Numbered from the stretch's first letter, positions 2,741-30,595 are shown. The stretch: DNA of 64,000 nucleotides from Pseudomonadota bacterium (GCA_918234285.1 CAKJXZ020000021.1:1-64000), one strand, 5' to 3'. Notes: a model not told the origin generated them from the letters alone. Made by a program: numbers and translations.

Positions 2741-3061
2741 TCAATATTCCTCCGCATACATTATGGTTAGCACCCTATTGGTTACTCTTGGGTTTGATAC
2801 ATCCGGTGAGAGATACAAAAATTCTTGGTCATAATAATCAATCTTCCAGAAAATCCGCCTGCCCTTATAGTCAAAGGCACCGAAATCGTGTTCATTGTAA
2901 GGGTCATTGTTTGCATCAAAAGTATCAAAATTGCGCACTTTGGTTATGATTTCCTTGATGTCTTCGGCAGTATTGCTCCGAATGCCCTGCGTTAAGACCA
3001 GCGTGCCTTGTGATAAGTTCTTGCGAAAGTAATCGTTTCGGTCGGCAACTTTATTATTCAT
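2741..3061 (-). CDS. DUF3768 family protein
   Basis: NDPYNEHDFGAF...FWKIDYYD...RVLTIMYAEEY signature. Confidence 0.85.
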   Translation of the reverse strand: MNNKVADRNDYFRKNLSQGTLVLTQGIRSNTAEDIKEIITKVRNFDTFDANNDPYNEHDFGAFDYKGRRIFWKIDYYDQEFLYLSPDVSNPRVTNRVLTIMYAEEY

Positions 3062-3647
3062 TGTTACCTCCCATATAAGTGCTGAAAATCTTATGGAACT
3101 CGTCTTCGGTTAAGTCCTCAACAGGCTTTAAGAACAGCAGCAGCGTTTCATCATTAAACGCCTGATTTTCTTTGGCCAAATCATAGGCGGTCTTGCCGGC
3201 ATTGTTTTTGATAGATGTGTCGGAGTTCTCCGCCAGATTACGGATAAGGTCTTTATGTATCATCGCTTGCGGATGGCGAACGGCATCCATTAGCGGGGTA
3301 CACCCGTCATTATCCTGCGCATCCGGATTAGCACCGGCGTCAATCAAAAGTTCCAAACAATCATAGTTAGCCCGATGCTGCGCCATAATGTGCATAGGTG
3401 TTTCACCATCTTTGTTTTTGCCGTTGATGTTGGCCCCGTGCTCTAAAAACAACTTAATCACTTCCGGTTCATAGAATGCTCGGCAGGCACGAAGGAACGG
3501 TGTCCACCCCTGATGATTATACGGAAGGTTCGGTTTTGCACCTTTTTTCAAGGCAGCTTCTACGGCCTCAATATCGCAGTTAAAAACGGCTGTTTTAAGT
3601 TCTTCAAGTAATTTGTGAGACGGACTCACTTTGATATCATTTTCCAT
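3054..3647 (-). CDS. Ankyrin repeat protein
   Basis: GWTPFLRA, GETPMHIM, GCTPLMDA and GKTAYDLA repeats. Confidence 0.9.
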   Translation of the reverse strand: MENDIKVSPSHKLLEELKTAVFNCDIEAVEAALKKGAKPNLPYNHQGWTPFLRACRAFYEPEVIKLFLEHGANINGKNKDGETPMHIMAQHRANYDCLELLIDAGANPDAQDNDGCTPLMDAVRHPQAMIHKDLIRNLAENSDTSIKNNAGKTAYDLAKENQAFNDETLLLFLKPVEDLTEDEFHKIFSTYMGGNNE

Positions 3648-3872
3648 TTTAATCTCCTTTTAGTCCGCTTATAAGTGGGACAAGTTGGTTTATAAATTCA
3701 CTTTTTGAGAAATGTCTCGGGAGGCATCCCTCGCTTTCTGTTATGATTTAAACATGCGCCGAATCGCTTGTCAAGTACTTTTTTCACAAAAAATACACAT
3801 AAGTCCATGATTCTGCATGATTTTCTTTTAAATTCAATAGGATGAATCGGAAATTTTTTTTGATTAGGATAT

Positions 3873-4694
3873 TTAATATAATCTTTTTTCCAAGTAATCC
3901 TTACATATTTTTTTAATTCCTGATGTAAATTTAACCGTAATAGTTTCTCCGTCTATGCTTTGGATATGCCCAACTCCAAAATGCTCCGAGAAAACTTCTT
4001 CACCTATGTTAATATCAACTAATTCAGTGCTTAAAGGAAATATTTTTGCTACAAATTTATAATATCTGTTATCAACATAAGGTTTATCCGATGTGCTTAT
4101 AACCAACAGAGCTCTTTTATAATTTAAGCATTCATCCGAAAATGAAAAATAATCTCTGTCAGTTACGTAATACTCTTTATACTCGTTATCATCATATATA
4201 AAATCAATCTTGGTCTTTACTTTTTTATTTTCTTCCGATTTATTAGAACAAATTTTATATATCTTGATATCTTCTGCAACAATCAACATTAATGAACCGG
4301 CAAATTTTTGTGCCTTCTCAATAGAAACATTATCTTCAACGTCTTCTAACAAATTTCCATTATCTACATACGGTAAGTAAGACAGAATATCCTCAATTGA
4401 TGCCTGTCTACCAGAGTAATTTCTTATTTTCCTTAAAACAAAATTTTCCTTTTGGATTTCTAAAGGGAAATAATGACCGGAGACTGTTATTATGTCTAAG
4501 AAATTGATTTTCATCCCCTGATATGATAGGTTTCCTTTAATTATAGAATCACCTTCTTCATCGGACACTAATCGCACAAATTGTTTGTTTTTCAAGTTTA
4601 TTCCGGAAACACAGTCTCCATCTCTGCCCAATTTTGATTTTTTGGCAGAAGCGGTTAAAATAACAAGGTCTAATTCTGTGCTTCCTTCATCCAT
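3873..4694 (-). CDS. Dual OB-fold-containing protein with a C-terminal Tudor/SH3-like tail
   Basis: N-terminal LVILTASAK...CVSGIN...FVRLV, and position downstream of a DUF488 pair. The C-terminal IGEEVFSEHFGVGHIQSIDG...VKFTSGIKKI resembles the UvrD/PcrA C-terminal domain. Confidence 0.65.
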   Translation of the reverse strand: MDEGSTELDLVILTASAKKSKLGRDGDCVSGINLKNKQFVRLVSDEEGDSIIKGNLSYQGMKINFLDIITVSGHYFPLEIQKENFVLRKIRNYSGRQASIEDILSYLPYVDNGNLLEDVEDNVSIEKAQKFAGSLMLIVAEDIKIYKICSNKSEENKKVKTKIDFIYDDNEYKEYYVTDRDYFSFSDECLNYKRALLVISTSDKPYVDNRYYKFVAKIFPLSTELVDINIGEEVFSEHFGVGHIQSIDGETITVKFTSGIKKICKDYLEKRLY

Positions 4695-4716
4695 TATTCA
4701 TTTTCCAAACATTTAA

Positions 4717-5166
4717 TTAAAGATGAATGATTTTTACATCATCATTGAGTGTATTCTTAAGATATTCAGCAAGGAGCCGTCTATGGCAGTGCTCTGGTGT
4801 AGGTTCACTACACAATAAACACAATTTTTTTGTATCCGCAGGAATAAATTTGCTTAAAAATTGTTCAATTTTCCTATCTTTTAATAATTTGAGGTATTTT
4901 TCTTCATACGTTGCCCAAGTAATTTTATTTTTTTTATAGTTATCAAGAATATCTTTCGTAGGGGCAAATTGTATAGAATGGTAATATTTTACGTTTAATA
5001 TTTTATCCAAGAAGAATTTCAAATCACTTGATTTTGTAAAACCGGCTAATTGAGATACATTATTGAGTCTGACATCAATTAAACATTGTATTGATGCTTT
5101 TTCCAGCAACTTAAAAAATTGCTCTGCCGACTTTTGTGTAAATCCAATAGTATAGATTTCTAACAT
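4717..5166 (-). CDS. DUF488 family protein
   Basis: IYTIGFT...LIDVRL...LLCSEPTPEHCHRR. Confidence 0.9.
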   Translation of the reverse strand: MLEIYTIGFTQKSAEQFFKLLEKASIQCLIDVRLNNVSQLAGFTKSSDLKFFLDKILNVKYYHSIQFAPTKDILDNYKKNKITWATYEEKYLKLLKDRKIEQFLSKFIPADTKKLCLLCSEPTPEHCHRRLLAEYLKNTLNDDVKIIHL

Positions 5167-5787
5167 TTAATGTTCTCCCTTATATCCTATTTCTTTATTG
5201 CGTTGCTTGTACGCATCTTTAAGTTGTTCTTCCCGTGTTTGTAAAAAACTTGGTTGATATTTATATTTTTGTAGTAAGCGTTCATCTAAATGTTCTTGTG
5301 TTTCCAATTCTGTATTATGTAGGATATGATAAACACTAAAACCTCTTAAACTCAAGGCTCTTGATATCATAATTGCTCGATGACAATCTATAGGGTCTTT
5401 TTCTGCACACATCAAGACGAAACTATATCCTAAATCAAGGCCTTTCGTAATTTTTACTACACCTTCTTCAAATTCTGGACCATTAGTAAAACGTTCAAAA
5501 TCCACACAACGGACGGATTGTCCATCTACATTGCTAATCATATAATATTTTGGATTTTCTTGTCTCGCTCCAAATTCTTTTGCGTAATTACGATACAATA
5601 TTCCATTTTCCTTTAGAAACGGCTCTAACGTTATACGTGAATAAAACTGATAATGTTCCGAAGATACGGGATAACTGCGAACATCGATTAAGCATTTAAT
5701 CCCGTAATGCTTTAATACTTCAAGTAACTTTTCCTTATCTGGAAAAGCAGTATAACCAATTGTATAAACAGAATATTGCTGTTTCAT
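5167..5787 (-). CDS. DUF488 family protein
   Basis: VYTIGYT...LIDVRS...LMCAEKDPIDCHRA. Confidence 0.9.
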   Translation of the reverse strand: MKQQYSVYTIGYTAFPDKEKLLEVLKHYGIKCLIDVRSYPVSSEHYQFYSRITLEPFLKENGILYRNYAKEFGARQENPKYYMISNVDGQSVRCVDFERFTNGPEFEEGVVKITKGLDLGYSFVLMCAEKDPIDCHRAIMISRALSLRGFSVYHILHNTELETQEHLDERLLQKYKYQPSFLQTREEQLKDAYKQRNKEIGYKGEH

Positions 5788-5883: not shown

Positions 5884-6198
5884 ATGAAGGTATTGATTGA
5901 AACACTAAACAACCGCAAAGGTTATAAATTCTTTGAAAATAAGGAAGAAATGGATGCTTATTTGGGCAGACACTGCGGCAAAATCGCCAGTTATGAAATT
6001 TTACAAGAAGATGATGCTGCCTCCACGAATGATATTCTGCAAGGATTGGCCGAAGAATGTGAAGTTCTCCATAACAAACTATTCTATCTCTTTAGACAAC
6101 AAGAAAAGTTAAAAAAAGCAAAGCAATACGAGGCTTTGATATACGCCGCCGGCAGAGTATATGAAGCCTATGGTGCCATCAGAAGATGTATAAAGTAA
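5884..6198 (+). CDS. Hypothetical protein
   Basis: 104-aa ORF with an AAGGAG ribosome-binding site and a downstream hairpin. Confidence 0.7.
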   Translation: MKVLIETLNNRKGYKFFENKEEMDAYLGRHCGKIASYEILQEDDAASTNDILQGLAEECEVLHNKLFYLFRQQEKLKKAKQYEALIYAAGRVYEAYGAIRRCIK

Positions 6199-6224
6199 AA
6201 ACCGCCACATTTCCGTAGCGGCTT
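6198..6224. terminator. Hairpin between convergent genes; near-copy at 12584-12610
   Basis: AAAACCGCCACATTTCCGTAGCGGCTT. Confidence 0.55.
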
Positions 6225-6239
6225 TGTTTTATAATCTAA

Positions 6240-7526
6240 TTAAAATTCCATTTTAATCCTACCTGCAAAGCATAATCGGCAATACCACAGCCAATTTTCT
6301 TCTCTTTCTACATGGTTCCAAACTTTTTTCATAAGTTCATATTTGGCCATAACCCCCATATTCTTAATGTGCTTTTCAGGTATTTCAACCTTTACATCAT
6401 CAAATGAACCATTCTTAACATCATGCGGAATTGTTATAAAACCTTTATCTATCAAGTAATAATCATACCCGAATTTCGGCAAAAAAGTATCAATATCCTT
6501 AATAAAATCTGCAACATCAATTCCCTCGCAATCAGGTTTATGCCAGTCTCGTTCCATTTCTTTTTTGCTAAAAGGCAACAAATAAGCCGGATACATAAAC
6601 TTGTTACTTAGGGTTGTAGAAAAGTTGGTTATCCAATTTCTAAAATAACATTCCCATAAAATCTTTCTAATTTGCTTTTTGCCAGATTTCTTTGAAAAAA
6701 TCCTTATTATATCCTTCAATTGTAGAAAGTTCAAATTGCAATAATAAAAATTAACTTCTCTATATTCTACCATACCGATACTGTGAAAAATACTCTCCAC
6801 CTTTGCATAAAATTTATTCATTATTTCCTCAAGATTTTCAGGTATAGGACCGAGAATATCCGCCATATCCTCATAAGATTTTCTATAATATCTTAGCGCA
6901 TCCCCATCAAAAGCCAATTTTTCTTCGTAAGACGAACATTGCTTTTCAAAATCTTGAATATTTTTTTCATATTTCTTCATTGTTTCATAATCTAATCCTC
7001 TCTTTATCCAATTTTCTACTCTCATATGGTAAGTGTTATTCAGATATCTAACAAAAGCTTCTTCATGAAGTAATTCTTCTGTTCTCTTTGCACCATTTTC
7101 TACCAAAAATCCCGCTATTTCCATTTGTGTAAAGACTAAACAATCATAAATCACTGTGTGATTGTGCTTATTTTTGATATTAACATCTACATGACATTCT
7201 TTCACCAGATAGTAAAGGATATGCATATGACGTTCGCTTGATGCCACGTGCAACAATGAATCACCAGTAACAGGGTCAATAAAATCTGCTGATAATCCTT
7301 TTTGAATAAGCAACTTTAATGTATCGAGTTTTCCGCCAACAACTGCATAGAATGCGGCATTTCTTCCTTTTGAATCTGTTATTCCCGAATCAATGCCGTT
7401 ATTAAGCAGTTGTTCTATTTTATCTTTATCTCCGTTCAATACGGCACGAAAGAATGGCGTTATATCTTTCTTTGCTATTTTATATGGTAGCTGCATAAAA
7501 TCATTGTTATTTCTTGTCTTACTCAT
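6240..7526 (-). CDS. Protein with N-terminal ankyrin repeats and an unknown C-terminal domain
   Basis: TPFFRAV, GRNAAFYAV and GDSLLHVA repeats in the first ~150 aa. Confidence 0.8.
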   Translation of the reverse strand: MSKTRNNNDFMQLPYKIAKKDITPFFRAVLNGDKDKIEQLLNNGIDSGITDSKGRNAAFYAVVGGKLDTLKLLIQKGLSADFIDPVTGDSLLHVASSERHMHILYYLVKECHVDVNIKNKHNHTVIYDCLVFTQMEIAGFLVENGAKRTEELLHEEAFVRYLNNTYHMRVENWIKRGLDYETMKKYEKNIQDFEKQCSSYEEKLAFDGDALRYYRKSYEDMADILGPIPENLEEIMNKFYAKVESIFHSIGMVEYREVNFYYCNLNFLQLKDIIRIFSKKSGKKQIRKILWECYFRNWITNFSTTLSNKFMYPAYLLPFSKKEMERDWHKPDCEGIDVADFIKDIDTFLPKFGYDYYLIDKGFITIPHDVKNGSFDDVKVEIPEKHIKNMGVMAKYELMKKVWNHVEREENWLWYCRLCFAGRIKMEF

Positions 7527-7541
7527 TGTTCGTCCTTTCAG

Positions 7542-8531
7542 TTATATATTATTCAAATAATTGTATGGAAGGTCATCAAAATCGCAATGGCTAAGGTTGC
7601 AATAACATTTCACACGACCGATATAACCTAAATTATTCTTAGCAATAATAATCTCCGCAATATTGCATTGTTTTCTTTCTCGTTCTACCCATTCCATATG
7701 CCTCTTTTGAAAATGTTCTTCAGTTTCCTTTGATGTCCTTTTGGGCTCATTCCAGTATAAATAGTAATTTTCACGATATAGAAATAATATCTTGTCAAAA
7801 TAACCATGTATCTTAAATTCTCTTATATCTTTCAAAAGAGGTCTTTTATCTTTACGTTTCTCTAAATCCCTTGTTAATTGCGACAGAATAAAAATCGGAA
7901 CATTCAAATCTTTTGCCATGATTTTCAATTCTTGCAAAATCTCTTCGTGGGAATAATATTCCCTATCAATTAATTGCAAATAATCTATAACAATGAAACC
8001 AATCGTTGAATAACGGCTAATATCTGTTATTTTTCTTCTTATATCTACCACTGTTTGCAGACAATCATCACAAATATAAATTGGCAACTGACCTATTTCT
8101 CTTCCTATATTAGCTATTGTTTCAAATTCCTCATATGAATTTGTTCCGTATTCGTAGTATGTCAATTGATGTGTCCAGACTTCTGGTATCTTTGCAGCAA
8201 TAAGCCTTTGAAGTATACATATGCGTGGACGGTCTATACTAAACCACAAGACTGATTTATTGATATTGGGATTTTTTTCTTTCTCCTCTAAGAATGATTT
8301 TGCTATTTTGTATGATAAATTGATGGCAAATGATGTTTTTCCCATGGCAGGTCTTGCTCCCAGTAGAATAACTTCACCGCCACGCATTCCGCCCAATCTT
8401 TCATCTAATTCCCTTATTCCGGTAGATAGGCCTAAGGGTTCATCTTCGTGTTGTATTCTGTATTCAAGTTCCTTCAAATAAGAATTTATTATCGAAGAAA
8501 TGTGTTCGTGGCAATTTCTGCTATCAGCCAT
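7542..8531 (-). CDS. DnaB-like helicase C-terminal (RecA-fold) domain protein, probably catalytically impaired
   Basis: GLSTG...GARPAMGKT, VIDYLQLI and LSQLTR..KRP are present. FSIDR replaces FSLEM, AKNNLG replaces AKQRNG, and there is no N-terminal domain. Confidence 0.85.
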   Translation of the reverse strand: MADSRNCHEHISSIINSYLKELEYRIQHEDEPLGLSTGIRELDERLGGMRGGEVILLGARPAMGKTSFAINLSYKIAKSFLEEKEKNPNINKSVLWFSIDRPRICILQRLIAAKIPEVWTHQLTYYEYGTNSYEEFETIANIGREIGQLPIYICDDCLQTVVDIRRKITDISRYSTIGFIVIDYLQLIDREYYSHEEILQELKIMAKDLNVPIFILSQLTRDLEKRKDKRPLLKDIREFKIHGYFDKILFLYRENYYLYWNEPKRTSKETEEHFQKRHMEWVERERKQCNIAEIIIAKNNLGYIGRVKCYCNLSHCDFDDLPYNYLNNI

Positions 8532-9228
8532 TGTCTTTCTCCTCATAAAACCACAATTTCTGGCAATCTTTCAAGTGTTCGGCATATTTCAAAGATGAGG
8601 TGTTGGCACGAACATATATAGCCTTGTCACTCGATGGCTTAATAACCTCAATATCTACCGGTTCTTTGTAACCTCTTTCTGCCGTCAATTTGAAAGTCAT
8701 ATCCGTTGCAATTAAATCTTCCGAAGAGTCTCGCTGCCAGCATATCACCGGAATATCAAGAATATGCGCCACATCTTTCAACATCAATGTTGCCCCATCT
8801 TCATCAAGACCATATCTTAACTTGTATATCGGCGTGACAACAGCCAACAGTTTTTTATCCTTTAGGTGTTGAAATTTTTTTAAGTTTAGCCAAGCAGAAT
8901 AGCTTCTCAGCAACAAATCAACGCCTTGTGTCGGGTCATCTTGCATAGGTAGTCCATGTCGTGTTAAAAGGCTGTCTTTCGAAATTCTGTTGCCAATCAG
9001 CGCATAATCGCCATCAGCAGGACTATTGTCAAAAATAGTGGAAGTAAACAACGGAAAATCAAGAGTGTTCATTATCAACGCAAAACCGTCGTTATTGTCG
9101 GCAATTCCCTGTGTTAAACTGATTATAAATTGCTCTGTTTGTATACATTCTCCTTGCACCGTCGCCAAATCGCCGGCGTTGAGACCGCCTAAATCCGTAT
9201 CAATAAAAGAAAAGCCTGTTTTTATCAT
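8524..9228 (-). CDS. Highly degenerate DnaB-like protein with no Walker A
   Basis: IKTGFSFIDTDLGGLNAGDL and LKDVAHILDIPVICWQ match DnaB segments; GKT is absent. Confidence 0.65.
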   Translation of the reverse strand: MIKTGFSFIDTDLGGLNAGDLATVQGECIQTEQFIISLTQGIADNNDGFALIMNTLDFPLFTSTIFDNSPADGDYALIGNRISKDSLLTRHGLPMQDDPTQGVDLLLRSYSAWLNLKKFQHLKDKKLLAVVTPIYKLRYGLDEDGATLMLKDVAHILDIPVICWQRDSSEDLIATDMTFKLTAERGYKEPVDIEVIKPSSDKAIYVRANTSSLKYAEHLKDCQKLWFYEEKDNG

Positions 9229-9476
9229 TTTAATTCCTCTGCGCTGATTTGTTTAACCTTGTCACCGTGTTCATTGAATAAATCGATTTTTCCTGCCGTG
9301 TCTGACTGAACGTAAACGTAGTCCTTATCGACCTTGACAATCGTTTTACCAACACCCCATGCCGGACAACGTATATTCCTTCCGCTATAAACAATCGCAA
9401 TCATGCCTTCTAAAGTGTGCGGAAATTTATCAATCGGTCGGCTAAACTTTATCATATCCCGAATATATTCTATCAT
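9225..9476 (-). CDS. Small hypothetical protein, paralogue of 9473-9886
   Basis: C-terminal KVDKDYVYVQSDTAGKIDL...KVKQISAEEL. Confidence 0.75.
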   Translation of the reverse strand: MIEYIRDMIKFSRPIDKFPHTLEGMIAIVYSGRNIRCPAWGVGKTIVKVDKDYVYVQSDTAGKIDLFNEHGDKVKQISAEELK

Positions 9477-9886
9477 GCTTCTAGCTCCTCTATGCTGATT
9501 TCTTTAACTTTGACCATATTTTTATCAAGCAAGTCCACTTTGCCCTCTGTATCGGAAAGGACATAGATGTAATCTTTATCCGTTTTTATCACGAGACGAC
9601 CGGTTCTGTTTCCTAAACGTTGTTTAAGCGAGCCGTCTTTCAGACCGTCTAAAATGGTTTTAGTCATATCGGTATTGGGATTTCTTGTAGAAATTGTTTG
9701 CAGTTGCTTAAGCAAGCTCTCTGCGCTTTGCAACTGTTCATTAATGCGGTTGAAGATATCTTTATCTTGCTCGCTGATGTTTAATGCCGCTACATAGGTT
9801 TTGATTTGCTCTATTATCGGCATAAAGTCATGATAAAAAGCCTTAATCATTGCGGTCATCTGGGTGTGCGTATCATTGTTTGTCAT
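9473..9886 (-). CDS. Hypothetical protein: helical N-terminus plus the shared C-terminal domain
   Basis: C-terminal KTDKDYIYVLSDTEGKVDL...KVKEISIEEL; GGAG ribosome-binding site. Confidence 0.75.
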   Translation of the reverse strand: MTNNDTHTQMTAMIKAFYHDFMPIIEQIKTYVAALNISEQDKDIFNRINEQLQSAESLLKQLQTISTRNPNTDMTKTILDGLKDGSLKQRLGNRTGRLVIKTDKDYIYVLSDTEGKVDLLDKNMVKVKEISIEELEA

Positions 9887-9943
9887 TGTCTTTCTCCGTG
9901 TTTGGGTTATTAAATTCTACAAGGACAATAAAACATAAACACA

Positions 9944-9958
9944 CGCCAGATTCTGACG
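9944..9958. promoter_or_regulatory. DriD/WYL-type operator box 1
   Basis: CGCCA-GATTC-TGACG, 24 nt upstream of a minus-strand TAGAAT -10 element. Confidence 0.7.
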
Positions 9959-9983
9959 TTAATAGAACGAAAGTGCATAAATT

Positions 9984-10014
9984 AAAACAGCCTCTCTTGA
10001 AGAAAGGCTGTTTT
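9984..10014. terminator. Intrinsic terminator
   Basis: AAAACAGCCT...AGGCTGTTTT. Confidence 0.75.
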
Positions 10015-10035
10015 GCTATAAAATGTGGTAATTCC

Positions 10036-10368
10036 TCAGAAAATCTTACTGATTAAGAAGTGCCAACAGGCTACCATTGCTGCAGGTCTATCTTCCATTC
10101 CGTGAATAATATAATCTCTTGCATTTCCTATTTCGCTGCCATTACCCTGACACCAACCATCACGAATGGTACTACCATCCACATTTCCAATAGCATTACC
10201 ATTGCCTACACACCAACCGTCACGAATTACACCATTATCAACATTACCTAAAGCGTTACCATTTCCGATGCACCAACCATCACGAATTACGCCATTGTCA
10301 ATATTTCCGATAGCATTACCATACTCTGAATCTTCGTGAATAACGCCATCTTTATAGTAGTATTCCAT
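10036..10368 (-). CDS. Gly/Asn-rich protein with 20-aa tandem repeats
   Basis: GNAIGNxDxGxIRDGWCxGN repeated three times (60-bp DNA period); GAAAGGA ribosome-binding site. Confidence 0.8.
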   Translation of the reverse strand: MEYYYKDGVIHEDSEYGNAIGNIDNGVIRDGWCIGNGNALGNVDNGVIRDGWCVGNGNAIGNVDGSTIRDGWCQGNGSEIGNARDYIIHGMEDRPAAMVACWHFLISKIF

Positions 10369-10419
10369 ATTGTTTTCCTTTCATTAAATGTTACCCAAAA
10401 ACATCTAAACATTACAATA

Positions 10420-10434
10420 CGTCAAATTATGACG
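10420..10434. promoter_or_regulatory. DriD/WYL-type operator box 2
   Basis: Perfect CGTCA-AATTA-TGACG, 26 nt upstream of a minus-strand TAACAT -10 element. Confidence 0.75.
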
Positions 10435-10437
10435 GAT

Positions 10438-11505
10438 TTATTTTTGATTGTTAACATAAGCTATAAAATTATCTGTAATCTTTCGGATTTCTTTTGCAAA
10501 ACATTCTTTATTTTCATCCCACTTTGCCAATATACCTTTAATATGTATGTGAAGTAGAGTTGCTTCATAATAATTCTCTTGTTTGCCTATTTCATTATAG
10601 TAATCAAGATTACTTGCCGCTTCCTTTGCACACTTATAATATTCCCTATATTCTGCAATATGTTTATTGTGTTCTGTCTCATTCTTCTTATCATACCAAT
10701 TATAATAGCGAAGAGACAAATATGGTCCTTCATTATCCGTATCTATCCGCCAAAATACACTATGATTCTCTCCTTTTAAGATTTTCATCTCTGTCCAAGG
10801 GCGCCCAAAGCTTGAACCTGAATATATCATATACTTTTCTTCTTTATCTTTCTTATCCCATTTATCTTCCGGAAAAATTGTCCTCATTAATTTATATTGT
10901 GCGATATACTCCTTTGATATATTCCAATCACCTTTATCGTTTTTATTATAGAATTTGCCATAAGTATCATACCACTTTATTAAATTATCCAAGTATTCTA
11001 TGTACATATCCAATGTCGCATCAATATTTTTATATTTTTGCAAAATTTTTTGGAAATCTTCTCCGTGAATAGAAGTAAAACCGTCAAATTTGCTATCTTT
11101 GTTATTTTGGCATTTATATTCCACTAATTTATCGTTATCATAGTAAAAACCGGTTTTGAAATAAACGACATTTACTTTACATCCCTTATATTTGTCGTCA
11201 TTTGATATTTTTTCTACATACTTTGCAATTTGTTCATCATGTTCACTCGTGTATGTCTTATCTTCAATGATTATAACCTTTTTCGTATTCGGAAAATGAA
11301 TTAAAATATCGGTTTTATAAAACTGCTGTTGTATCTCGATTTTATTGTCTTCAGGGGACAGCTCTACAAAAGATGACAACAGGTCTTTAGCCAAGCTATA
11401 TAATTTACTATCCTTATTATTATAAAAGCTCAATATCCAACAAATAACCGCATCTTGAGAAAGCTCACTGGTTGCGTACTTAAATATGTTATTTTCAATT
11501 GTCAT
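10438..11505 (-). CDS. PD-(D/E)XK nuclease family protein (PDDEXK_4-like)
   Basis: NIFKYATSELSQDAVICW...TDILI...IIIEDK...EHDEQIAKY. Confidence 0.8.
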   Translation of the reverse strand: MTIENNIFKYATSELSQDAVICWILSFYNNKDSKLYSLAKDLLSSFVELSPEDNKIEIQQQFYKTDILIHFPNTKKVIIIEDKTYTSEHDEQIAKYVEKISNDDKYKGCKVNVVYFKTGFYYDNDKLVEYKCQNNKDSKFDGFTSIHGEDFQKILQKYKNIDATLDMYIEYLDNLIKWYDTYGKFYNKNDKGDWNISKEYIAQYKLMRTIFPEDKWDKKDKEEKYMIYSGSSFGRPWTEMKILKGENHSVFWRIDTDNEGPYLSLRYYNWYDKKNETEHNKHIAEYREYYKCAKEAASNLDYYNEIGKQENYYEATLLHIHIKGILAKWDENKECFAKEIRKITDNFIAYVNNQK

Positions 11506-11577
11506 GTTCGTTCTCCAATTCCTGAATTATTTTTATTCTATACACCATTTATTAAATTTTGCTATATATTCTTAATA

Positions 11578-11592
11578 CGACAGAATATGGCG
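11578..11592. promoter_or_regulatory. DriD/WYL-type operator box 3
   Basis: (ATA)CGACA-GAATA-TGGCG(CA) in the divergent nuclease/WYL intergenic region; resembles the Caulobacter DriD site as I recall it. Confidence 0.75.
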
Positions 11593-11625
11593 CACAATAT
11601 TTGTAAATTTCAACCGAGGCACAAA

Positions 11626-12582
11626 ATGGCTAATTATGAAAAAATGTATGACTTGTTTGATTTGGCTCTTTGGATGCAAGAAACAAGTGAAGGCTTATCT
11701 TTAGAGGATATTGAACAAAAATATAACGTTTCTCGCAGAACTGCCGAGCGTATGCGTAATGCTTTAATGACCTATTTTCCGCAAATGGAAGAAGTTGCTA
11801 CAGGTGAGCGCACAAAACGTTGGCGGATAACGCAACGCAGTTTGAACAGTTTTATTTCGTTTTCCGCTGAAGAATTAGCCGTATTCAAAACTGCTATTGA
11901 TAAGCTAAAACAGAGCAATATGAAAGAAAAAGCTGATACTTTAGCTCATATTGAACTAAAATTACGCAATCTCTTAAAACCGGAGCAAAAGAACAAAATT
12001 GAAGTTGATGCCGATGAATTGATGAAATCCGAAGGGTTAGTCTTGCACCCGGGACCACGAATTGAACTCAATAAAGAGATATTAAATACTTTGCGCCAAG
12101 CCATTTTATCTTGCCATCATATCAAAATGTCTTATCTTACTAAATATACCGGCAAAATTCACGAATATAAACTTGTTCCATATGGTTTCCTGTATGGTCA
12201 AAGAGACCACTATTTGGTTGCAAAGCATAATGACGACTACGATAACGGAAAGGCGCACAATTTCTCATTACAGCAGATTAAGAGTGTTGAAATATTGCCG
12301 GATATCTTTGATAGTTCGAAATTTAATTTGAATGAATATGCGTTAGAATCTTTTGGTGCTTTTCATGAAGAACCATTCGATGTTGAGTGGTTGTTTAGCG
12401 CAGATGTAGCAGATGAGGCCAAAAACTTCATTTTCCACCCCAAGCAGAAAATGATAAAAAATCCCGATGGCACATTGACAGTCAAATTCAAAGCCGGTGG
12501 CCGACGGGAAATGGATTGGCACCTTTACACTTGGGGCAACCAAGTTAAAGTTATTAAACCGAAAGATTGGGATAAACACTAA
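11626..12582 (+). CDS. driD: HTH-WYL-WCX transcriptional regulator, DriD-like
   Basis: SEGLSLEDI...VSRRTAERMR..L...FPQME, GPR, PYGFLYG..YLVA, ESFG.FH and FKAGGRREMDWHLYTWG closely follow Caulobacter DriD as I recall it. Confidence 0.85.
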   Translation: MANYEKMYDLFDLALWMQETSEGLSLEDIEQKYNVSRRTAERMRNALMTYFPQMEEVATGERTKRWRITQRSLNSFISFSAEELAVFKTAIDKLKQSNMKEKADTLAHIELKLRNLLKPEQKNKIEVDADELMKSEGLVLHPGPRIELNKEILNTLRQAILSCHHIKMSYLTKYTGKIHEYKLVPYGFLYGQRDHYLVAKHNDDYDNGKAHNFSLQQIKSVEILPDIFDSSKFNLNEYALESFGAFHEEPFDVEWLFSADVADEAKNFIFHPKQKMIKNPDGTLTVKFKAGGRREMDWHLYTWGNQVKVIKPKDWDKH

Positions 12583-15040: not shown

Positions 15041-15559
15041 ATGAGTAGAAGTCAAAGTGAATTGTCATTAACCCAGCGTGAAATCTTGCAATTAGTTATC
15101 TATCGCACCAAAAATCCCAAAAGTCCTACGTTCTTCGGTAACAATGAATATATTGGTAAATGTGTTAATGTTAAACCTGATACCGTTAGAAAAGCACTTA
15201 AAGAGTTAAAAGACTTTGGATATATTATGGAAGCCAAAGATGATAAAGGTCGCCGCCATTTAGCCTATACAGGTAAAGAATTTCCACCGATTATTGAAGA
15301 TATGCGTAATATGGATAAAAGGATGCTGAAACAAGAAAAAGATAATTATCTCCGTGATTTGAATTACTGTAAGCACGAACTTGAAATGGCTCAAATCCGT
15401 ATAGATACGCTGGAAAGAGATAACTCTGCGCTGAATGATAAACTGTTTTACGCTGAATTACGGGTTAAAGAGTTAGAAAACATCTTTTTCGCTCAAGGTG
15501 TTACCAAAGAGCAGATTGATATAATGATTAAACAGGTGCAAACAATGCAAGCGGCTTAA
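15041..15559 (+). CDS. Winged-helix plus coiled-coil protein, putative replication initiator
   Basis: FFGNNEYIGKCVNVKPDTVRKALKELKDFGYI winged-helix motif; adjacent to the iterons. Confidence 0.65.
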   Translation: MSRSQSELSLTQREILQLVIYRTKNPKSPTFFGNNEYIGKCVNVKPDTVRKALKELKDFGYIMEAKDDKGRRHLAYTGKEFPPIIEDMRNMDKRMLKQEKDNYLRDLNYCKHELEMAQIRIDTLERDNSALNDKLFYAELRVKELENIFFAQGVTKEQIDIMIKQVQTMQAA

Positions 15560-16413
15560 TGATACCCAATTTCCTTTACATCGTCTTCAAAATCATCTGA
15601 AAAATCAAATTCATCATCGTCTTCATCGGTAGTGATTTCCGCTTCTTCTTGTATTGTCGGACAAAAGAATTCAAGATAACCGCCATCTGCAATTCGCCAA
15701 CACAAAGCATATTCGCCGTATTTTAGCACTGTGCCAAATAAATTTAACTCAATAGCATCTGTCTCACATCCGAAGTTTATCGCTATCATTTGCCGCAATT
15801 CATACCTATCGTAGGATGTCAGGTAAATTATCTCGTGAATATTGTGGTCAAACTTTATATTCTTTGGTGTTTTTGGTTTATAGCAGACAAAGAAGCCTTT
15901 ATATTCGCACCAACATCCGACAAATTGGTCATTTATAAAGACATCTTCTGTTTGCGTAAATTTGATAGTTTTGGAATCAATTTTCATATGTTCGGCAAGA
16001 GTTAGCCTTAACTGTTGAACTGAAAAGCCAACCAATACAACCTTTTCGGCAGGAGTTAGCAGCGTTGCGTCATACTCTGCTTTCTTGTCTTCGTCTTTCA
16101 GTAAATCGTAAGCCTTCTTAACGTTTCTAAATTGTGCATTTGCATTTTTACTGGCATTATGGTCGGGATGGTATTTTTTGACCGTAGCCTTATAGGCTTT
16201 CTTAACTTCTTCTACTGATGTTCTTGGAGCGATTTCTAACACATCATAAGCCGTTTTCTTGTTTGCTTTCTTCTGTCTTTCAGCCCAAGCGGCATCAAAC
16301 ATCTTATCGCCTTCTTTGCTCAATAACTGATAGGCATCAAGTTCCTTCTTCTTTTTGGGAGCCAGAAGTCCAACAGCAACCATTGTTCCGAAAAGCCAAA
16401 GAAGTCCGCTCAT
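15556..16413 (-). CDS. Membrane-anchored J-domain (DnaJ-like) protein
   Basis: N-terminal hydrophobic helix; AYDVLEI...KKAYK...KYHPD...YD. Confidence 0.85.
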   Translation of the reverse strand: MSGLLWLFGTMVAVGLLAPKKKKELDAYQLLSKEGDKMFDAAWAERQKKANKKTAYDVLEIAPRTSVEEVKKAYKATVKKYHPDHNASKNANAQFRNVKKAYDLLKDEDKKAEYDATLLTPAEKVVLVGFSVQQLRLTLAEHMKIDSKTIKFTQTEDVFINDQFVGCWCEYKGFFVCYKPKTPKNIKFDHNIHEIIYLTSYDRYELRQMIAINFGCETDAIELNLFGTVLKYGEYALCWRIADGGYLEFFCPTIQEEAEITTDEDDDEFDFSDDFEDDVKEIGYH

Positions 16414-16436: not shown

Positions 16437-16604
16437 TTAAAAGTCATCAATATCATCGCCAGAAGCACCGTTGAAATACATATCTTCAAACTCTTTATCA
16501 GCCTTGCTTTGGTGATGATGTGTTGCTTTCTTCGGCTTTTGGTTATCATTCCCGATAATCAACCAAATCACAACTCCGATGATAATTAAAACTAATATGG
16601 CCAT
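16437..16604 (-). CDS. 55-aa single-pass membrane protein
   Basis: Manual translation MAILVLIIIGVVIWLIIGNDNQKPKK...DDIDDF; fills the gap in the operon; not in the ORF track. Confidence 0.6.
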   Translation of the reverse strand: MAILVLIIIGVVIWLIIGNDNQKPKKATHHHQSKADKEFEDMYFNGASGDDIDDF

Positions 16605-16608
16605 ATTA

Positions 16609-17007
16609 TTAGTCAACTTTCATATATTTGTTAAAAATATTTTCAACATGTTCAGGTAAGTTATTAAAACATCTATCGTCCTCTTCTAATTCTGTTCCCA
16701 CTAAATCAGACAATACCTTAACCATATCTTCTCCAAATAGCCATAATGCTTCTGATGTTAATGGGAATAAATCTTCTGCTTCTAAATATGGATTCAACCC
16801 TGCTTTTTTCTTTTCGGGCATAGAAAAGTAAATATTTTTTAATTTATTATAAAATTCAAACCGTTTATCAAACAAATCTTGTTTTCTTTGTTTTTCACTT
16901 GTTCTCCATTGCATAAACGCGATAATTGCGACACATAGTGCAAGCCAAAAGTTATTTTCGCCCCAATCACCTATTTTCTTAAATAACTCACACACATTTT
17001 CCCACAT
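16609..17007 (-). CDS. Hypothetical membrane protein translationally coupled to brxL
   Basis: Start overlaps the brxL stop (TAATG); one predicted transmembrane helix. Confidence 0.7.
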   Translation of the reverse strand: MWENVCELFKKIGDWGENNFWLALCVAIIAFMQWRTSEKQRKQDLFDKRFEFYNKLKNIYFSMPEKKKAGLNPYLEAEDLFPLTSEALWLFGEDMVKVLSDLVGTELEEDDRCFNNLPEHVENIFNKYMKVD

Positions 17008-19103
17008 TATTCTTCAACCTCCTGTTTAATATACGTTACTTCAAACTGTTTGCATGGACGATATTTTTGCAGGCGTGTTGTAAAGGCAAAGAAGTCTTTA
17101 CGTTCGCAGTTTTGGTAGATTTCCAAACCTCTATCCAAAGATATCTTCCAACCGGTATCCGTTACAATGCTGCGAGCATGAATTGTGGAATCAAACTTAT
17201 ATGAAAACTTAATGCCCAGGGCATAACAAGATGACTCTATCTGCTTAAAATTGTTCTCTTGCATTTCTATAGTGTTTTCATCAGTAGTCGTTATCAATTC
17301 CACATAAACTTCATCTGCTACGGCCTTATTTTGTTCAATAAGTTCCAAAAACTCCATCAAATTCAATGTTTGGAATACATTCCGAATATATGGGTCTGTT
17401 ATTGTTATATGTTTTGCCCCCTTAATATACGGAGCAAACAGTTTTTCGTAGGTAACACCAAGTTGTCCTTCAGCAAAAGTCAGATGTTGTTCCTTCAATT
17501 CTTCTTTCTTTTCAGCCGGCTGTTGCAAAAGTTCTTTAATATCGTTATCAATGTTGCTTGTTGTTTCAACTGTATCATTATCTGTACTTTCTTCCACTTC
17601 AGGTTTATCAAATTCTGCGGTTGTTACCGTACCGTGATACATATCTTTATATTGAATTTCCTCTAATGTGGTAACTTTTACTTTTTCTCCGCCGCTTTTG
17701 ATATAAGAGAAATCAGTTGCAGGGAATGTGCTATCAATACGCAAAAGTTGGTCTTTAACACGCTTTCTTCCTTCCATAGCAAACTTTAACAACTCTTCTT
17801 TTTCTTCATATGTGGCTACTTTATTCGGATAAATTATCTTCATTAGTCCGGAGAATGTCTTGTTAATGCCATCTCTATCACGTGTTGAGATATCTGATGA
17901 CAATTCCATAGTTTCTTTATATTCATTGGAATAGTCATAATTACGTAGATATTTCAGAACTTCGGCATAATAATCTACTACAAAGCCATAACCTGTTGTA
18001 AATAATTCGTTCCGAATAACATCAATTTCCCAGCCAGGAATATAAAAATGTATTCTATCCAAAAATGCCGAATCCAAATACTTGTCTGGTAATTCTTCAA
18101 ATAAGTTGGAATGTGTCAGCATAAATGGAACGTTATGTTTTGTATTGCCGATAAAGGTCATAGAGGCTTCTGCGCCTAATGTTTCTACACCGCGAGAGAA
18201 GGATTTGTTGGCCATATAACCTTTCATAATGTCAACCAAAGCCTTATCTACCTTCTTTTGTTGTCCTGCAAATTCATCAAAGGCAACATTATCCCAATAA
18301 CCTACAAGCCCGATACTATGCTTTTTAGAGTTATTAACGAATAATTTTGCTACTGTTACCTCTCCACCTGAAATCAATGTTCCGTGAGGCGAAAACTCGG
18401 TATAGATATGTGATTTACCTGTTCCTTTCGGCCCTAATTCAATCAAATTATAGTTTCGCTCACAGAATGGTATAAGACGCACTAATTGCAATAATTTGTT
18501 TCGGCGGCTTAACATCTCCGGATTAAATCCGATACTTTGCAAAATCAAATCAATCCATTCATCTGTCGTGAATTTGCTACGTTTTTCTTTGAAATCGTCA
18601 AAATTAAACTGGGATAATTGGATGGGCTTAATTGATGACAATACCCACGGACATTCATTTGTATCTTCACTGAAATGATATTCCAAATCGGCCAAACACC
18701 AAACACCGGAAACCAATAAGCGTGGATGTTTTTTACTTACGGTTTCCGCATCTACCAAGACTCTACTGATGCCCAGATTTGAAAATGTCAGACGGTAACA
18801 GTCATTTTTCTCATCCAATTCCGCAAAAATCTTATCAATAACCTTATAGCGGCCTTTTTCCTTGATATATGACTTAATGAGTTCGGCTTCGTTTCTATGA
18901 ACATAATGTTTGGCTAAAATCTCTTTTACCGATTCAATTCCTGCATTGATTGTCGCTTCATCATTGGTAGCGCAATACTGTCCGAGCAAGTATTCTAATA
19001 CGTATGATGGCACAATAGCGTTGCCTTTGACCTCTTTAACCAAATCTTTTCTAACAACGCATCCAGGAAATACATCGTTTATTTTTGTATCCAAACTATT
19101 CAT
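17007..19103 (-). CDS. brxL: BREX BrxL, ATPase form with a C-terminal MIT_C/PLD-like domain
   Basis: VPSYVLEYLLGQYC, ELGPKGTGKSH, FDEF and DSAFLDRIHFYIPGW; C-terminal DPYIR...IHARSIVTDTGWKISLDRGL. Confidence 0.9.
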   Translation of the reverse strand: MNSLDTKINDVFPGCVVRKDLVKEVKGNAIVPSYVLEYLLGQYCATNDEATINAGIESVKEILAKHYVHRNEAELIKSYIKEKGRYKVIDKIFAELDEKNDCYRLTFSNLGISRVLVDAETVSKKHPRLLVSGVWCLADLEYHFSEDTNECPWVLSSIKPIQLSQFNFDDFKEKRSKFTTDEWIDLILQSIGFNPEMLSRRNKLLQLVRLIPFCERNYNLIELGPKGTGKSHIYTEFSPHGTLISGGEVTVAKLFVNNSKKHSIGLVGYWDNVAFDEFAGQQKKVDKALVDIMKGYMANKSFSRGVETLGAEASMTFIGNTKHNVPFMLTHSNLFEELPDKYLDSAFLDRIHFYIPGWEIDVIRNELFTTGYGFVVDYYAEVLKYLRNYDYSNEYKETMELSSDISTRDRDGINKTFSGLMKIIYPNKVATYEEKEELLKFAMEGRKRVKDQLLRIDSTFPATDFSYIKSGGEKVKVTTLEEIQYKDMYHGTVTTAEFDKPEVEESTDNDTVETTSNIDNDIKELLQQPAEKKEELKEQHLTFAEGQLGVTYEKLFAPYIKGAKHITITDPYIRNVFQTLNLMEFLELIEQNKAVADEVYVELITTTDENTIEMQENNFKQIESSCYALGIKFSYKFDSTIHARSIVTDTGWKISLDRGLEIYQNCERKDFFAFTTRLQKYRPCKQFEVTYIKQEVEE

Positions 19104-19118
19104 ATCTCAAAACCTTTC

Positions 19119-21593: not shown

Positions 21594-21594
21594 C

Positions 21595-24500: not shown

Positions 24501-25092
24501 CGATAACTTCCACATCTTGACAAGTTTCGGCATCAAGAGTTTCTACTGCTTGTGTCAGCACCGAACTGTTGGAAAGTAAGTCATCCGGCATCAAAAGTTC
24601 AGTATAGTCCTTAATCCGCTCAAACATAAACGGCATCAATTTATTATAGGCATTACAATATGCCACTAAAAGCAGTTTATATACTTCTTCTTGCGGTTTA
24701 GGGCTACTGATAGCACCGTTCAACAGAGCGGAAATGCGTTGTTCTACATCTGCCGGCACAACCTGTTTATCCACATATCCGGCTTTGGCTTCTGAAAGCA
24801 CTTCCGGTTGGGTTTGTCCCTCTGCCGGCGAAACTACTCCAATTTTGGTATAATGGTTCACATCCATAAAACGTAGAGCAATAAAGCGGTTAAACCATGT
24901 ATAGGCTACTTTTTCAATAGTTTGTTCTTTGCCGATTTCTGCTATCAAACCTTCCAAGGCTCTTATCGCTTGCGGATTATTACGACGTTCAAAACTGTTG
25001 GCTTCTAATACCAAATCTAATTTGGCGGCCACAATGCCCATCAGCGATTTACGCGCTTCAATAGCAAATTTCTTTAATTTTGAAGTATCCAT
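21595..25092 (-). CDS. pglX: BREX-1 adenine methyltransferase PglX
   Basis: AYTWFNRFIALRFM, TQLFTPDWIV, DPACGSGH, NPPY and IDLDDGVKVNY. Confidence 0.95.
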   Translation of the reverse strand: MDTSKLKKFAIEARKSLMGIVAAKLDLVLEANSFERRNNPQAIRALEGLIAEIGKEQTIEKVAYTWFNRFIALRFMDVNHYTKIGVVSPAEGQTQPEVLSEAKAGYVDKQVVPADVEQRISALLNGAISSPKPQEEVYKLLLVAYCNAYNKLMPFMFERIKDYTELLMPDDLLSNSSVLTQAVETLDAETCQDVEVIGWLYQYFNQEEKDRVIKAKKRYKGFEIPYATQLFTPDWIVRYMTQNSLGKLWMEANPTSALKDKMEFYLEPRNVSAEAKKELENHIFKGIKPQEIKVFDPACGSGHILVYAFELLYEVYKEQGYPDNEIPEMILTHNLYGLDICDRAAQLAQFAVMMKARQYDRNIFNKLNNVNICSVKDTKWITADVLEDLLQGVSDREYAKQQIYTLCENFNNARIIGSLCKLDEIDIAFWEERLNYFKNQRQTTMNTPAIKGRLPFLIKQLKIMQQNYECVITNPPYIGGTYMEKTLLEFIQNEYSDAKYDLFSAFIVYCQSKTVNNGYIGFMTPFVWMFISSYENLRSKIINDTDITSLVQLEYSGFDGATVPICTFTLAKRNIADMAGCYIRLSDFPGAKNQPIKTREAVLNKDCGFYYETNKLDFNLVPGTPIAYWFGNNWKKVFENPLLKNDVIPKSGVVTGEDDFFIRFWQEVNFEKISFIEKEHKKYSEYHIFQKGGEQRKYYGNYWYVIKLNKLWSPQYTNKSVRRGDENFYFCRGIGWSQIGSNQQKSFRVIDKSVCGTATPTVYPQNANDLYVILALLNSNISQFLYPMYNPTINLLTSDICNIPFIKPSNGIKHTIDTLVEQNIAISKDDWDSFETSWDFEQHPLIRFSNRNKGLVDYENISKIEPITEGDKISECFAKWKAYKEQQFNQLKANEEELNRLFIEIYGLQDEMTPEVDDKDITVAKADEEREVKSLISYAVGCMFGRYSLDAKGLIYAGGDFDANNYQTFEADEDGIIPVLSEHYFTDDIVERFNKFIKVAFGEKYYAENMAYIASVLNTKANKSPEQVLREYFIKDFYKDHVQMYQKRPIYWMFSSEKNAFNALIYLHRYNKDTVNLVLNEYLREYKNKLQGNIDALTSLENNDFNATIDKIALQADLNEADDYERNILFPLATERKEIDLDDGVKVNYLKFGKALRNIGLKEKA

Positions 25093-25101
25093 AGTCTGTC
25101 C

Positions 25102-28554: not shown

Positions 28555-28556
28555 CG

Positions 28557-29150: not shown

Positions 29151-29158
29151 AATTTCTC

Positions 29159-29746: not shown

Positions 29747-29765
29747 AAATTACCTCAAAGCGTGC

Positions 29766-29925
29766 TAAATCACCATTTAATTGTATCACTTTTTGCATCA
29801 TAAACCCAAAATGCTGAATTGCAACCAAAATCTTTCTGTAATACAACAAAATAAAGTAATTCTGCCACTTTTTGACATATCTACTGGAAATATCTAAAAA
29901 AATGGGTGGGCTAAATGGTGATTTA
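29766..29925. promoter_or_regulatory. Segment bounded by a 14-bp inverted repeat with divergent promoter-like elements; candidate invertible promoter
   Basis: TAAATCACCATTTA (29766-29779) and TAAATGGTGATTTA (29912-29925). Minus strand: TTGCAA-N16-TATGAT and TGaTACAAT. Plus strand: TTGACA-N17-TAAAAA. Confidence 0.6.
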
Positions 29926-29992
29926 ATTGCACTACTCTTTAATCTGATATTTTTTATTCAATCTGATAATAAATAACCAAAAAGGATTGAAT

Positions 29993-30592: not shown

Positions 30593-30595
30593 TAA

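Follow-up and report, generated by a model that had tools for sequence, protein, structure and literature searches.

Three conserved operator boxes beside a DriD/DdaA-type WYL regulator: a probable local regulon with undescribed cargo on a low-GC island

What does a WYL-domain regulator control when its gene lies among genes that match no described system? The question is raised by a locus at positions 6240-12582 of GCA_918234285.1 CAKJXZ020000021.1:1-64000, a stretch of 64,000 nucleotides (nt), called here the window in its full length, from an uncultured alphaproteobacterium of the gut or rumen. At the right end of the locus is a plus-strand gene for a WYL regulator of 318 amino acids (aa) (11626..12582); to its left, on the minus strand, follow genes for a predicted nuclease (nuc355) and a small repeat protein (rep110), and an operon of five genes. 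A short palindrome stands ahead of each of these units. The locus is probably, if by no means certainly, a local regulon of a WYL activator of the DriD/DdaA type on a low-GC defence island. The pair of regulator and operator belongs to this known kind, while the cargo is undescribed.

Operator boxes and their conservation

The palindrome CGNCANNNNNTGNCG (CGNCA-N5-TGNCG) has exactly three matches in the 64 kb window, at 9944-9958, 10420-10434 and 11578-11592. In 100 shuffles the expectation was 0.47 matches per window, and three matches were reached in a single shuffle. The original prediction had placed the palindrome in three consecutive gaps beside the WYL gene, and we found that all three matches are indeed exact and intergenic. 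Box 1, CGCCAGATTCTGACG (9944..9958), precedes by 58 nt the ATG of par137 (9886), the first of the five minus-strand genes that make up the operon from 9886 to 6240. Box 2, CGTCAAATTATGACG (10420..10434), is a perfect palindrome and precedes the rep110 ATG (10368) by 52 nt. Box 3, CGACAGAATATGGCG (11578..11592), sits between the divergent starts of nuc355 (ATG 11505) and the WYL gene (ATG 11626) and is common to the two promoters.

The strength of each box was scored with a matrix of 27 nt, derived from 24 sites of which 21 came from other genomes. In a scan of the 2,005,265 bases (2.0 Mb) of the genome, box 2 (29.7 bits) was the best site of all, and boxes 3 (24.5 bits) and 1 (21.7 bits) ranked third and fourth, so that three of the four sites of at least 20 bits belong to this locus. 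Because the three boxes rank among the genome's four best matrix sites, the regulon appears to be local. No box at recA or other core repair genes was among the best matrix sites in the genome, and the further high-scoring sites that we inspected were all intragenic. The second-ranked site (25.3 bits; G000 C3:4115) falls within a structural gene of a prophage (3459-4400) and could be a chance match or a phage-borne site for the regulator.

With their flanks, the boxes follow the extended consensus A-Y-A-CG-W-CA-N5-TG-W-CG-T-R-T. Box 2 fits the published motif CGWCA-N5-TGWCG exactly, and boxes 1 and 3 each depart from it at a single W position, where the base is not W. The original prediction had compared the boxes with the CGAC-N7-GTCG type of site bound by Caulobacter DriD. 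That resemblance stands to the extent that box 3 and its flanks equal the 20-bp DriD site mapped in the didA promoter (as given in PMC9186387) at 14 of 20 positions, counted by eye; the closest published operator, going by the motif as reported, is instead the CGWCA-N5-TGWCG of DdaA.

Could the three palindromes be chance matches, or weak terminator hairpins? The loose pattern is about as common genome-wide as its reversed control (67 sites versus 55) and is thus without enrichment, and our terminator scan picked up boxes 1 and 2 as terminator-like hairpins too. Since the loose pattern is not enriched, the signal must lie in the clustering of the boxes and in their flanking bases. The loose-pattern expectation in the 1.65 kb spanned by the boxes is approximately 0.055 sites, yet three are clustered there, all between genes and all among the four best matrix sites. 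The comparison with relatives, in which boxes are kept with their target genes across many metagenome-assembled genomes (MAGs), speaks in the same direction. We collected 80 loci around WYL homologues (877 kb in total), where CGWCA-N5-TGWCG occurs 71 times, or 80.9 sites per Mb, against 11 sites (5.5 per Mb) in this genome, a density approximately 15-fold higher near WYL homologues. Although approximately 86% of this DNA is coding, by the open reading frame (ORF) calls made in our analysis, 63 of the 71 sites are intergenic; the reversed consensus gave 8 sites in the same loci, with none between genes. We therefore regard chance as an extremely improbable explanation for the boxes.

The arrangement of the locus is conserved as well. 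WYL homologues were found in 26 of the 36 other genomes of the genus that were searched. The layout of WYL gene, box, nuclease-like gene, box, rep110, box and par operon recurs in loci L043, L044, L045, L046, L048 and L053, and partly in L049, so that at least six of these relatives, which are gut and rumen alphaproteobacterial MAGs, have the three-box layout. The original prediction had staked itself on boxes and gene order being kept in related loci, and they are. In the loci of 7 relatives, box 2 is kept before the rep110 orthologue. Some par operons on contigs other than that of the WYL gene (L037 and L040) likewise have a box ahead of them, in keeping with a trans-acting factor.

The WYL start is preceded by a matrix site, 15-110 bp upstream, in 33 of the 78 evaluable loci: 16 of 17 where the WYL protein is at least 80% identical to that of the window, 1 of 11 at 60-80% identity and 16 of 50 below 60%. 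In the 60-80% group, the box precedes instead a gene for an AAA+ ATPase, which heads an operon that includes the WYL gene. The commonest box target in relatives is a double AAA+ ATPase of approximately 680 aa (IetA-like) at the head of an operon with the WYL gene (L019, L020, L026 and 19 more loci). Because the ATPase-headed operon includes the WYL gene, the regulator would be under its own box in those loci.

The regulator and its promoters

Another line of evidence is the regulator itself. Residues 4-313 of the 318 align with Caulobacter DriD (PDB 8tp8/9pfq) at an E-value of 2.7e-49 in a search of PDB sequences, a full-length match that bears out the DriD-like regulator originally proposed. 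Pfam finds both WYL (8.7e-9) and WCX (3.5e-6) in the protein, and the domain order of winged helix-turn-helix (wHTH), WYL and WCX is that of DriD/DdaA-type activators. The gene is single-copy in the genome, and its MANYEK start is the same in relatives. The recognition-helix stretch RRTAERMR is identical in the WYL protein and in DriD, with the S/R/T/A/R positions invariant across 8 clade members; a recognition helix with two conserved arginines is a feature that PMC12392091 describes for the DriD/DdaA clade. The WYL protein could not be placed as DdaA or DriD through named homologues, neither name occurring among the best 120 of 923 homologues, every one of which is unnamed or a MAG protein.

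The position of the box within the promoter was measured in relatives. We anchored 119 distinct non-WYL promoters on the box and counted the offsets at which TANNNT begins. The offset is 11 nt in 45 of the 119 promoters, the next commonest offsets accounting for 15, 14 and 14; offsets of 24 and 26 nt were found in 8 and 7 promoters, mostly orthologues of the window's own. With 11 nt as the most frequent offset of the -10-like hexamer, the box itself would occupy the -35 position. At this spacing it would span about -38 to -24, and the -35 position would coincide with box positions 4-9 (the CA and four loop bases), where the box has no TTGACA-like sequence. The cryo-EM account of DriD with RNA polymerase in PMC13004042 describes a target site overlapping with the -35 position and set at a constant distance from the -10, in promoters without a -35 element.

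In the window, the candidates at 11 nt from box 3 are TAAATT toward the WYL gene and TATAGC toward nuc355. For box 2 the hexamers are TTAGAT (11 nt) and TAACAT (26 nt), and for box 1 they are TATTGT (13 nt) and TAGAAT (24 nt). The original prediction had put the -10 hexamers of boxes 1 and 2 at 24 and 26 nt. TAGAAT and TAACAT do exist at those distances, but a -10 at 11-13 nt is better supported by the comparison with relatives than one at 24-26 nt.

The terminator at 9984..10014 (minus strand), after rep110, has a 14-bp stem followed by UUUUAAUUU, a U-run; the original prediction had relied on it to separate rep110 from the operon, and it is strong, with a free energy of -19.7 kcal/mol, a z-score of -4.6 and none of 200 shuffles as good. 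A second terminator (6198..6225, minus strand; a 12-bp stem, then a T-run) ends the operon after ank428, and the terminator scan places another, after ank205, at 12607-12588.

From these observations we infer a mechanism of activation. A homodimeric wHTH-WYL-WCX protein would recognise the 15-bp palindrome CGNCA-N5-TGNCG, and the three boxes would replace the -35 element in three leftward promoters: P-nuc (common with the divergent WYL promoter), P-rep and P-par. A nucleic-acid ligand, by analogy with DriD and DdaA most likely single-stranded DNA (ssDNA) from DNA damage or from phage replication or degradation, would bind the WYL domain, and the ligand-bound dimer would recruit RNA polymerase. 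In this way the PD-(D/E)XK nuclease, the small repeat protein and the five-gene operon, with its two small beta proteins, its inactive and active DnaB-C-like RecA-fold proteins and its ankyrin protein, would be switched on together. The cargo would then act on DNA, most likely as an inducible anti-phage or damage-response effector set.

Several observations weigh against this mechanism or weaken the numbers behind it. Among the residues that Gozzi et al. (PMC9186387) list as contacts of DriD with ssDNA, the alignment shows Y168, Y192 and K202 to be retained but R176 replaced by K, R178 by H, R204 by H, R207 by S and W206 by F. Because several contact residues are replaced, the ligand may differ or bind weakly; position 204 is R, H or C across the clade, and the ligand may still be ssDNA. 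The -10 candidates of the window at 11-13 nt are imperfect (TATAGC, TTAGAT and TATTGT), and the hexamers at 24 and 26 nt may serve as alternatives. The contigs that supplied the matrix partly recur among the 80 WYL loci, an overlap that touches the matrix counts and from which the regular-expression counts are free, and the related genomes and promoters are kin to each other, so that the counts are non-independent. Finally, the -35 and spacer region, over which the box would lie, is a place that suits a repressor too.

The last point leads to a different use of the same regulator and boxes, in which a repressor in the style of BrxR or CapW holds the cargo silent until the ligand releases the dimer. 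Such a repressor would suit a box that overlaps the core promoter region, the loss of several of the arginines by which DriD contacts ssDNA, and a locus that lies in a defence island beside BREX, given that the WYL regulators which PMC9122601 and PMC11662680 describe for such islands repress. It fits less well with the ancestry of the protein: at E <= 1 only 6 PDB sequences were found, all of them DriD or 'WYL domain-containing protein' entries with no BrxR or CapW chain among them, so that the closest solved relatives by sequence are DriD entries, and the PADLOC matches of the protein are to generic WYL models only. With a -10 at 11 nt, the promoters also have no -35 hexamer, as is typical of activator-dependent promoters, and DriD and DdaA, which use the same form of operator, activate as described in PMC13004042 and PMC12392091. 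We consider repression unlikely, and retain activation as the reading under which the cargo is discussed below.

Cargo genes and their setting

We searched the products of the locus against Pfam and NCBIfam for families and against the PADLOC-DB 2.0 models for systems, and these searches upheld the gene calls of the original prediction. The predicted PD-(D/E)XK-family nuclease nuc355 (10438..11505, minus strand, as are all the cargo genes) matches Pfam PDDEXK_4 at 24.5 bits, above the cut-off of 22.3, and partially matches the PADLOC candidate PDC-S26 (E 4e-8). Its orthologues hold the same slot in relatives; in others, PDC-S02 (E 3.8e-52) fills it. The 110-aa product of rep110 (10036..10368) consists of three 22-aa units and a hydrophobic C-terminal helix. 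Its match to Pfam Bflower_3 (E 9.6e-4) is under the family cut-off, and the protein is possibly beta-flower-like, a six-fold beta-flower fold having been described (PMC10584680).

The operon begins with two paralogues of 137 and 83 aa, par137 (9473..9886) and par83 (9225..9476), which are 55% identical over 42 aa (E 8e-15) and have in common a C-terminal beta unit; par137 combines a helical N-terminal part with half of the par beta domain. The AlphaFold2 (AF2) model of par83 (pLDDT 92, pTM 0.83) is of a small all-beta protein resembling a two-blade propeller. No significant match to it was found in the PDB, the best E-value being 0.49 with Foldseek and the best Z-score 4.8 with VIA (propeller blades and the Tsi1 immunity protein), and we do not claim a new fold. 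The par83 family is small, with 23 cluster representatives among 1.84 billion proteins at E <= 0.001. For par137, a protein Atlas search gave only chance-level leads (HisKA-labelled clusters at 0.94 with low shared features; TM <= 0.44).

The next two genes encode the DnaB-like pair. The original prediction had spoken of a degenerate-helicase operon, and the 234-aa product of deg234 (8524..9228) does model as a DnaB C-terminal, RecA-like fold without Walker A: its AF2 model (pLDDT 75, pTM 0.80) matches DnaB 2r6e in Foldseek (E 4.3e-9, TMq 0.60), and the position of the P-loop reads QGECIQTEQ. The assignment comes from the model; the protein has no Pfam match, and its profile gave only sub-threshold DnaB matches (E 0.5) among PDB sequences. 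It has 74 homologues, all unnamed, is found in 11 of 50 genomes of the genus and has no match among 50,697 phage records. A distant paralogue (228 aa, 27% identity) is encoded elsewhere in the genome (G000 C3:157746-158408; L042 4726-5412), between genes for an outer-membrane beta-barrel and for glycosyltransferases and with no high-scoring box near it.

DnaBC334 (7542..8546) is a DnaB C-terminal ATPase domain (Pfam DnaB_C, 1.7e-52) with Walker A and B intact and the helicase motif H4 altered. It is without the DnaB N-terminal domain, its alignment to DnaB 4nmn beginning at residue 151, and is 34% identical to the cell's own DnaB. Its best score against the NCBIfam replicative-helicase models is 206.7 bits, against a cut-off of 540; with the N-terminal domain missing and the score so far below the cut-off, we rejected it as a replicative DnaB helicase. 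A PADLOC match to mad8 has an E-value of 8.7e-4. The start of DnaBC334, MRRKTM (window 8524-8546), resembles those of DnaQ-like exonuclease genes that stand behind deg234 in relatives, MRRRTM and MRRNMM (L046, L034 and L035), and the rest of it has 52% identity to a DnaB-C gene that is box-driven in L068. On this comparison the gene seems to have been swapped in as a cassette where the junction between genes is conserved.

The operon ends with ank428 (6240..7526), which has N-terminal ankyrin repeats (Pfam Ank_2, 1.1e-27) and a C-terminal region of approximately 230 aa of no known kind, residues 170-428 having no usable match in the protein Atlas; a PADLOC match to PDC-M72A covers the ankyrin region only. 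In relatives, the operon usually consists of par, in some cases a second par, deg234, a DnaQ-like DEDDh exonuclease of approximately 175 aa, and then an ankyrin protein or others. In one locus, L046, deg234, exonuclease, DnaB-C-like gene and ankyrin gene stand together. The relatives also have fusions, of deg234 to RNase_T (P0030) and of RNase_T to ankyrin repeats, the latter followed by a DnaB-C gene (L118). The window itself lacks this exonuclease; a hidden copy in it was rejected as a candidate, the only match in the genome being the housekeeping dnaQ on contig C10.

What stands behind the boxes varies from locus to locus. We took all genes starting within 220 bp of a box of at least 16 bits in the 80 loci and the window, and obtained 149 proteins in 44 clusters. 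The largest clusters are the WYL protein (27) and the double AAA+ ATPase (22; IetA-like, E 1.7e-39), followed by the par family (box-proximal in 13 loci), DnaB-C-like (10), nuc355-like (9), the rep110 family (8 loci) and an MBL/RMMBL hydrolase (6). Smaller groups comprise GmrSD/HEC-06-like pairs, DUF2779/Cas4-like, UDG-like/DUF1643 and DEDDh exonuclease proteins, and an RNase_T-ankyrin fusion. A second box-driven module (L014, L015, L051 and L055) consists of a DnaB-C-like ATPase, a protein of 113-127 aa and a UDG-like or DUF1643 protein.

The setting resembles an island. The GC content of the first 30 kb of the window is 31-40%, versus 43% for the genome, and a complete type I BREX operon (brxA, brxB, brxC, pglX, pglZ and brxL) lies at 17007-29746. 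The low GC, the BREX operon, a cluster of DUF488 and dual OB (DuOB) genes and the variable slot support, but do not prove, an island-borne and defence-oriented reading.

The surroundings held further features. The cluster just named (2741-5787) contains two DUF488 genes, the DuOB gene, an ankyrin gene and a DUF3768 gene, and adjoins a phage-integrase-family fragment of 194 aa (1912-2496) and a C39-like peptidase gene (709-1521). BrxL carries a PLD-like C-terminus. Beyond BREX are two serine recombinase genes, one Mpi-like (29987-30592) and one for a resolvase (31382-31981); no inverted repeats of at least 25 nt were found in 16500-31500, which holds the BREX and invertase genes. DnaJ-domain proteins flank the BREX region (15556-16413 and 31987-32502), and a third DnaJ-like gene is near the deg234 homologue of L036. 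Farther along the window are a HipA-like kinase gene (35871-37100; HipA_C 8e-55), downstream of three small ORFs without a Pfam match, and an ORF of 4205 aa (38038-50655) with no Pfam match at E <= 1e-4. The WYL protein was also considered as a regulator of BREX and rejected, there being no high-scoring box in or before the BREX operon.

What, then, does the cargo do? We infer its function from folds, fusions and neighbours. The original prediction had recognised no described system among the effectors, and this is still so: par137, par83, deg234 and rep110 have no match in PADLOC-DB 2.0, and word searches of the open-access literature did not find the combination as a described system. The absence of any validated defence system among the matches, which are only weak or partial and to candidate models, counts at the same time against a role in defence, as does the phage-like character of DnaBC334 taken up below.

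A serious rival is that the regulon is real but serves repair, tolerance or a checkpoint after DNA damage; the nuclease and the RecA-fold proteins, joined in relatives by the DnaQ-like exonuclease and UDG-like proteins, would then process damaged DNA or pause replication. The cargo does consist of DNA-metabolism folds, and all characterised members of the clade control DNA-damage responses, as described in PMC9186387, PMC12392091 and PMC13010146. A repair module would not be expected, on the other hand, to be so patchy (deg234 in 11 of 50 genomes of the genus, the WYL gene in 26 of 36), to have a hypervariable cargo slot that admits type IV restriction-like GmrSD proteins and PADLOC candidate systems, or to lie in DNA of island composition next to BREX. 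Moreover, no box is found at recA or core repair genes among the best matrix sites, and the genome encodes a LexA above the family cut-off to run the canonical SOS response. Weighing these, we give a damage module a fairly low probability, somewhat higher than that of repression.

The operon might alternatively replicate a mobile element, with a helicase and a loader-like partner induced by damage so that the element escapes. DnaBC334 resembles phage replicative helicases, with similar genes in 826 phage records at 32-34% identity (best 34.5%), and the window has the integrase-family fragment at 1912-2496 and the two serine recombinases. But no primase, initiator or origin-like repeats adjoin the operon, deg234 is unmatched in the 50,697 phage records, H4 is altered and the N-terminal domain missing in DnaBC334, and the same boxes precede nucleases, AAA+ ATPases and GmrSD proteins in relatives. 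Replication of an element is therefore very improbable.

Returning to an inducible effector set, a bolder and decidedly tentative version can be put forward, which we think more apt to be wrong than right. The operon of par, degenerate DnaB-C, DnaB-C (in relatives, DnaQ-like exonuclease) and ankyrin genes might be a new inducible anti-phage system made from paralogues of replisome parts and armed by a DriD-type activator that senses the ssDNA of an invader; foreign DNA might be attacked as it replicates, the system either loading onto it or poisoning its forks. The box would then mark a hypervariable cargo slot, and the approximately 40 box-linked clusters would list effectors of gut Alphaproteobacteria, induced by damage or by phage, that still await discovery. 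If the cargo is defensive, it adds a type of system built from helicase and exonuclease paralogues.

Whatever the cargo does, the module is compact and portable, with one activator gene, a few boxes and DNA-acting genes that can be exchanged. The box, being short, specific and conserved, offers 'guilt by regulon' as a way into proteins that cannot be placed by homology alone, such as the par family, the DnaB-C-like proteins without a P-loop and the beta-flower-like repeat protein. As a whole the original interpretation is partly supported; the ssDNA trigger and the independence from SOS that it proposed are conjectural, the genome having a LexA.

Comparison with known systems

The DnaB-like pair can be compared with DnaB helicases and with the DnaB_C proteins of retron loci. 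DnaBC334 shares with these the DnaB C-terminal ATPase domain, Walker A and B included, and deg234 is modelled with the same fold; unlike DnaB helicases, however, DnaBC334 has no N-terminal domain and an altered H4, and deg234 lacks the P-loop. Stand-alone DnaB_C proteins have been described as accessory genes in candidate defence loci, beside type XI-like retrons (PMC13712802), whereas no reverse transcriptase is near our locus.

With BrxR and CapW the locus has in common a WYL-domain regulator beside variable defence cargo. Both of these are repressors, and the published tree of PMC12392091 groups them apart from DriD and DdaA. The WYL gene here is not upstream of brxA but lies 4.4 kb from BREX, beyond brxL, and the BREX operon has no high-scoring box.

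DriD is much closer. It is the best solved-structure match over the full length, RRTAERMR is identical and the operators are related. The DriD target site overlaps with the -35 position, at a constant distance from the -10 (as described in PMC13004042), as the boxes probably do, and a nuclease, bapE, is among the targets reported for DriD in PMC9186387 and PMC13004042. In Caulobacter, according to PMC13004042, driD and a divergent operon share a bidirectional promoter that holds a DriD site, and activation there extends to the divergent operon only. The differences are that DriD is described as running a chromosome-wide damage regulon (didA, recA, recJ, dnaG and bapE), to which the cargo here is unrelated, and that four arginines given as ssDNA contacts of DriD are replaced here.

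The nearest published operator is that of DdaA, a WYL activator of Acinetobacter and other Moraxellaceae that stands adjacent to DriD in the published tree (Song et al. 2025, PMC12392091). The same source gives the DdaA motif as CGWCA-N5-TGWCG and that of DriD as CGAC-N7-GTCG, and reports that DdaA homologues from other phyla bind the motif. As it describes them, homologues outside Moraxellaceae probably regulate neighbouring genes of unknown function, as DdaA itself putatively did before its transfer into Moraxellaceae. Because regulation of neighbouring genes by DdaA homologues is already set out there, the regulator and motif of our locus are not new. DdaA is likewise described as a homodimeric wHTH-WYL-WCX activator with an operator of the same form as the boxes; our comparison with it rests on the published motif and description, and the WYL protein may sit in either the DdaA or the DriD branch.

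The two regulons differ in reach and geometry. DdaA is reported to control defence genes (restriction-modification, Zorya and CRISPR-Cas) together with repair genes (PMC12392091; Ellison et al. 2026, PMC13010146), whereas the regulon here is local, with three promoters, no repair-gene box among the best sites and LexA present. The DdaA motif is described as lying approximately 50 bp upstream of transcription starts; here, by the comparative geometry, the box is nearer and over the -35 position. DdaA, as its published accounts present it, showed that an activator of this kind can couple DNA damage to immunity in Moraxellaceae, and the same operator logic is found here in uncultured Alphaproteobacteria of the gut and rumen.

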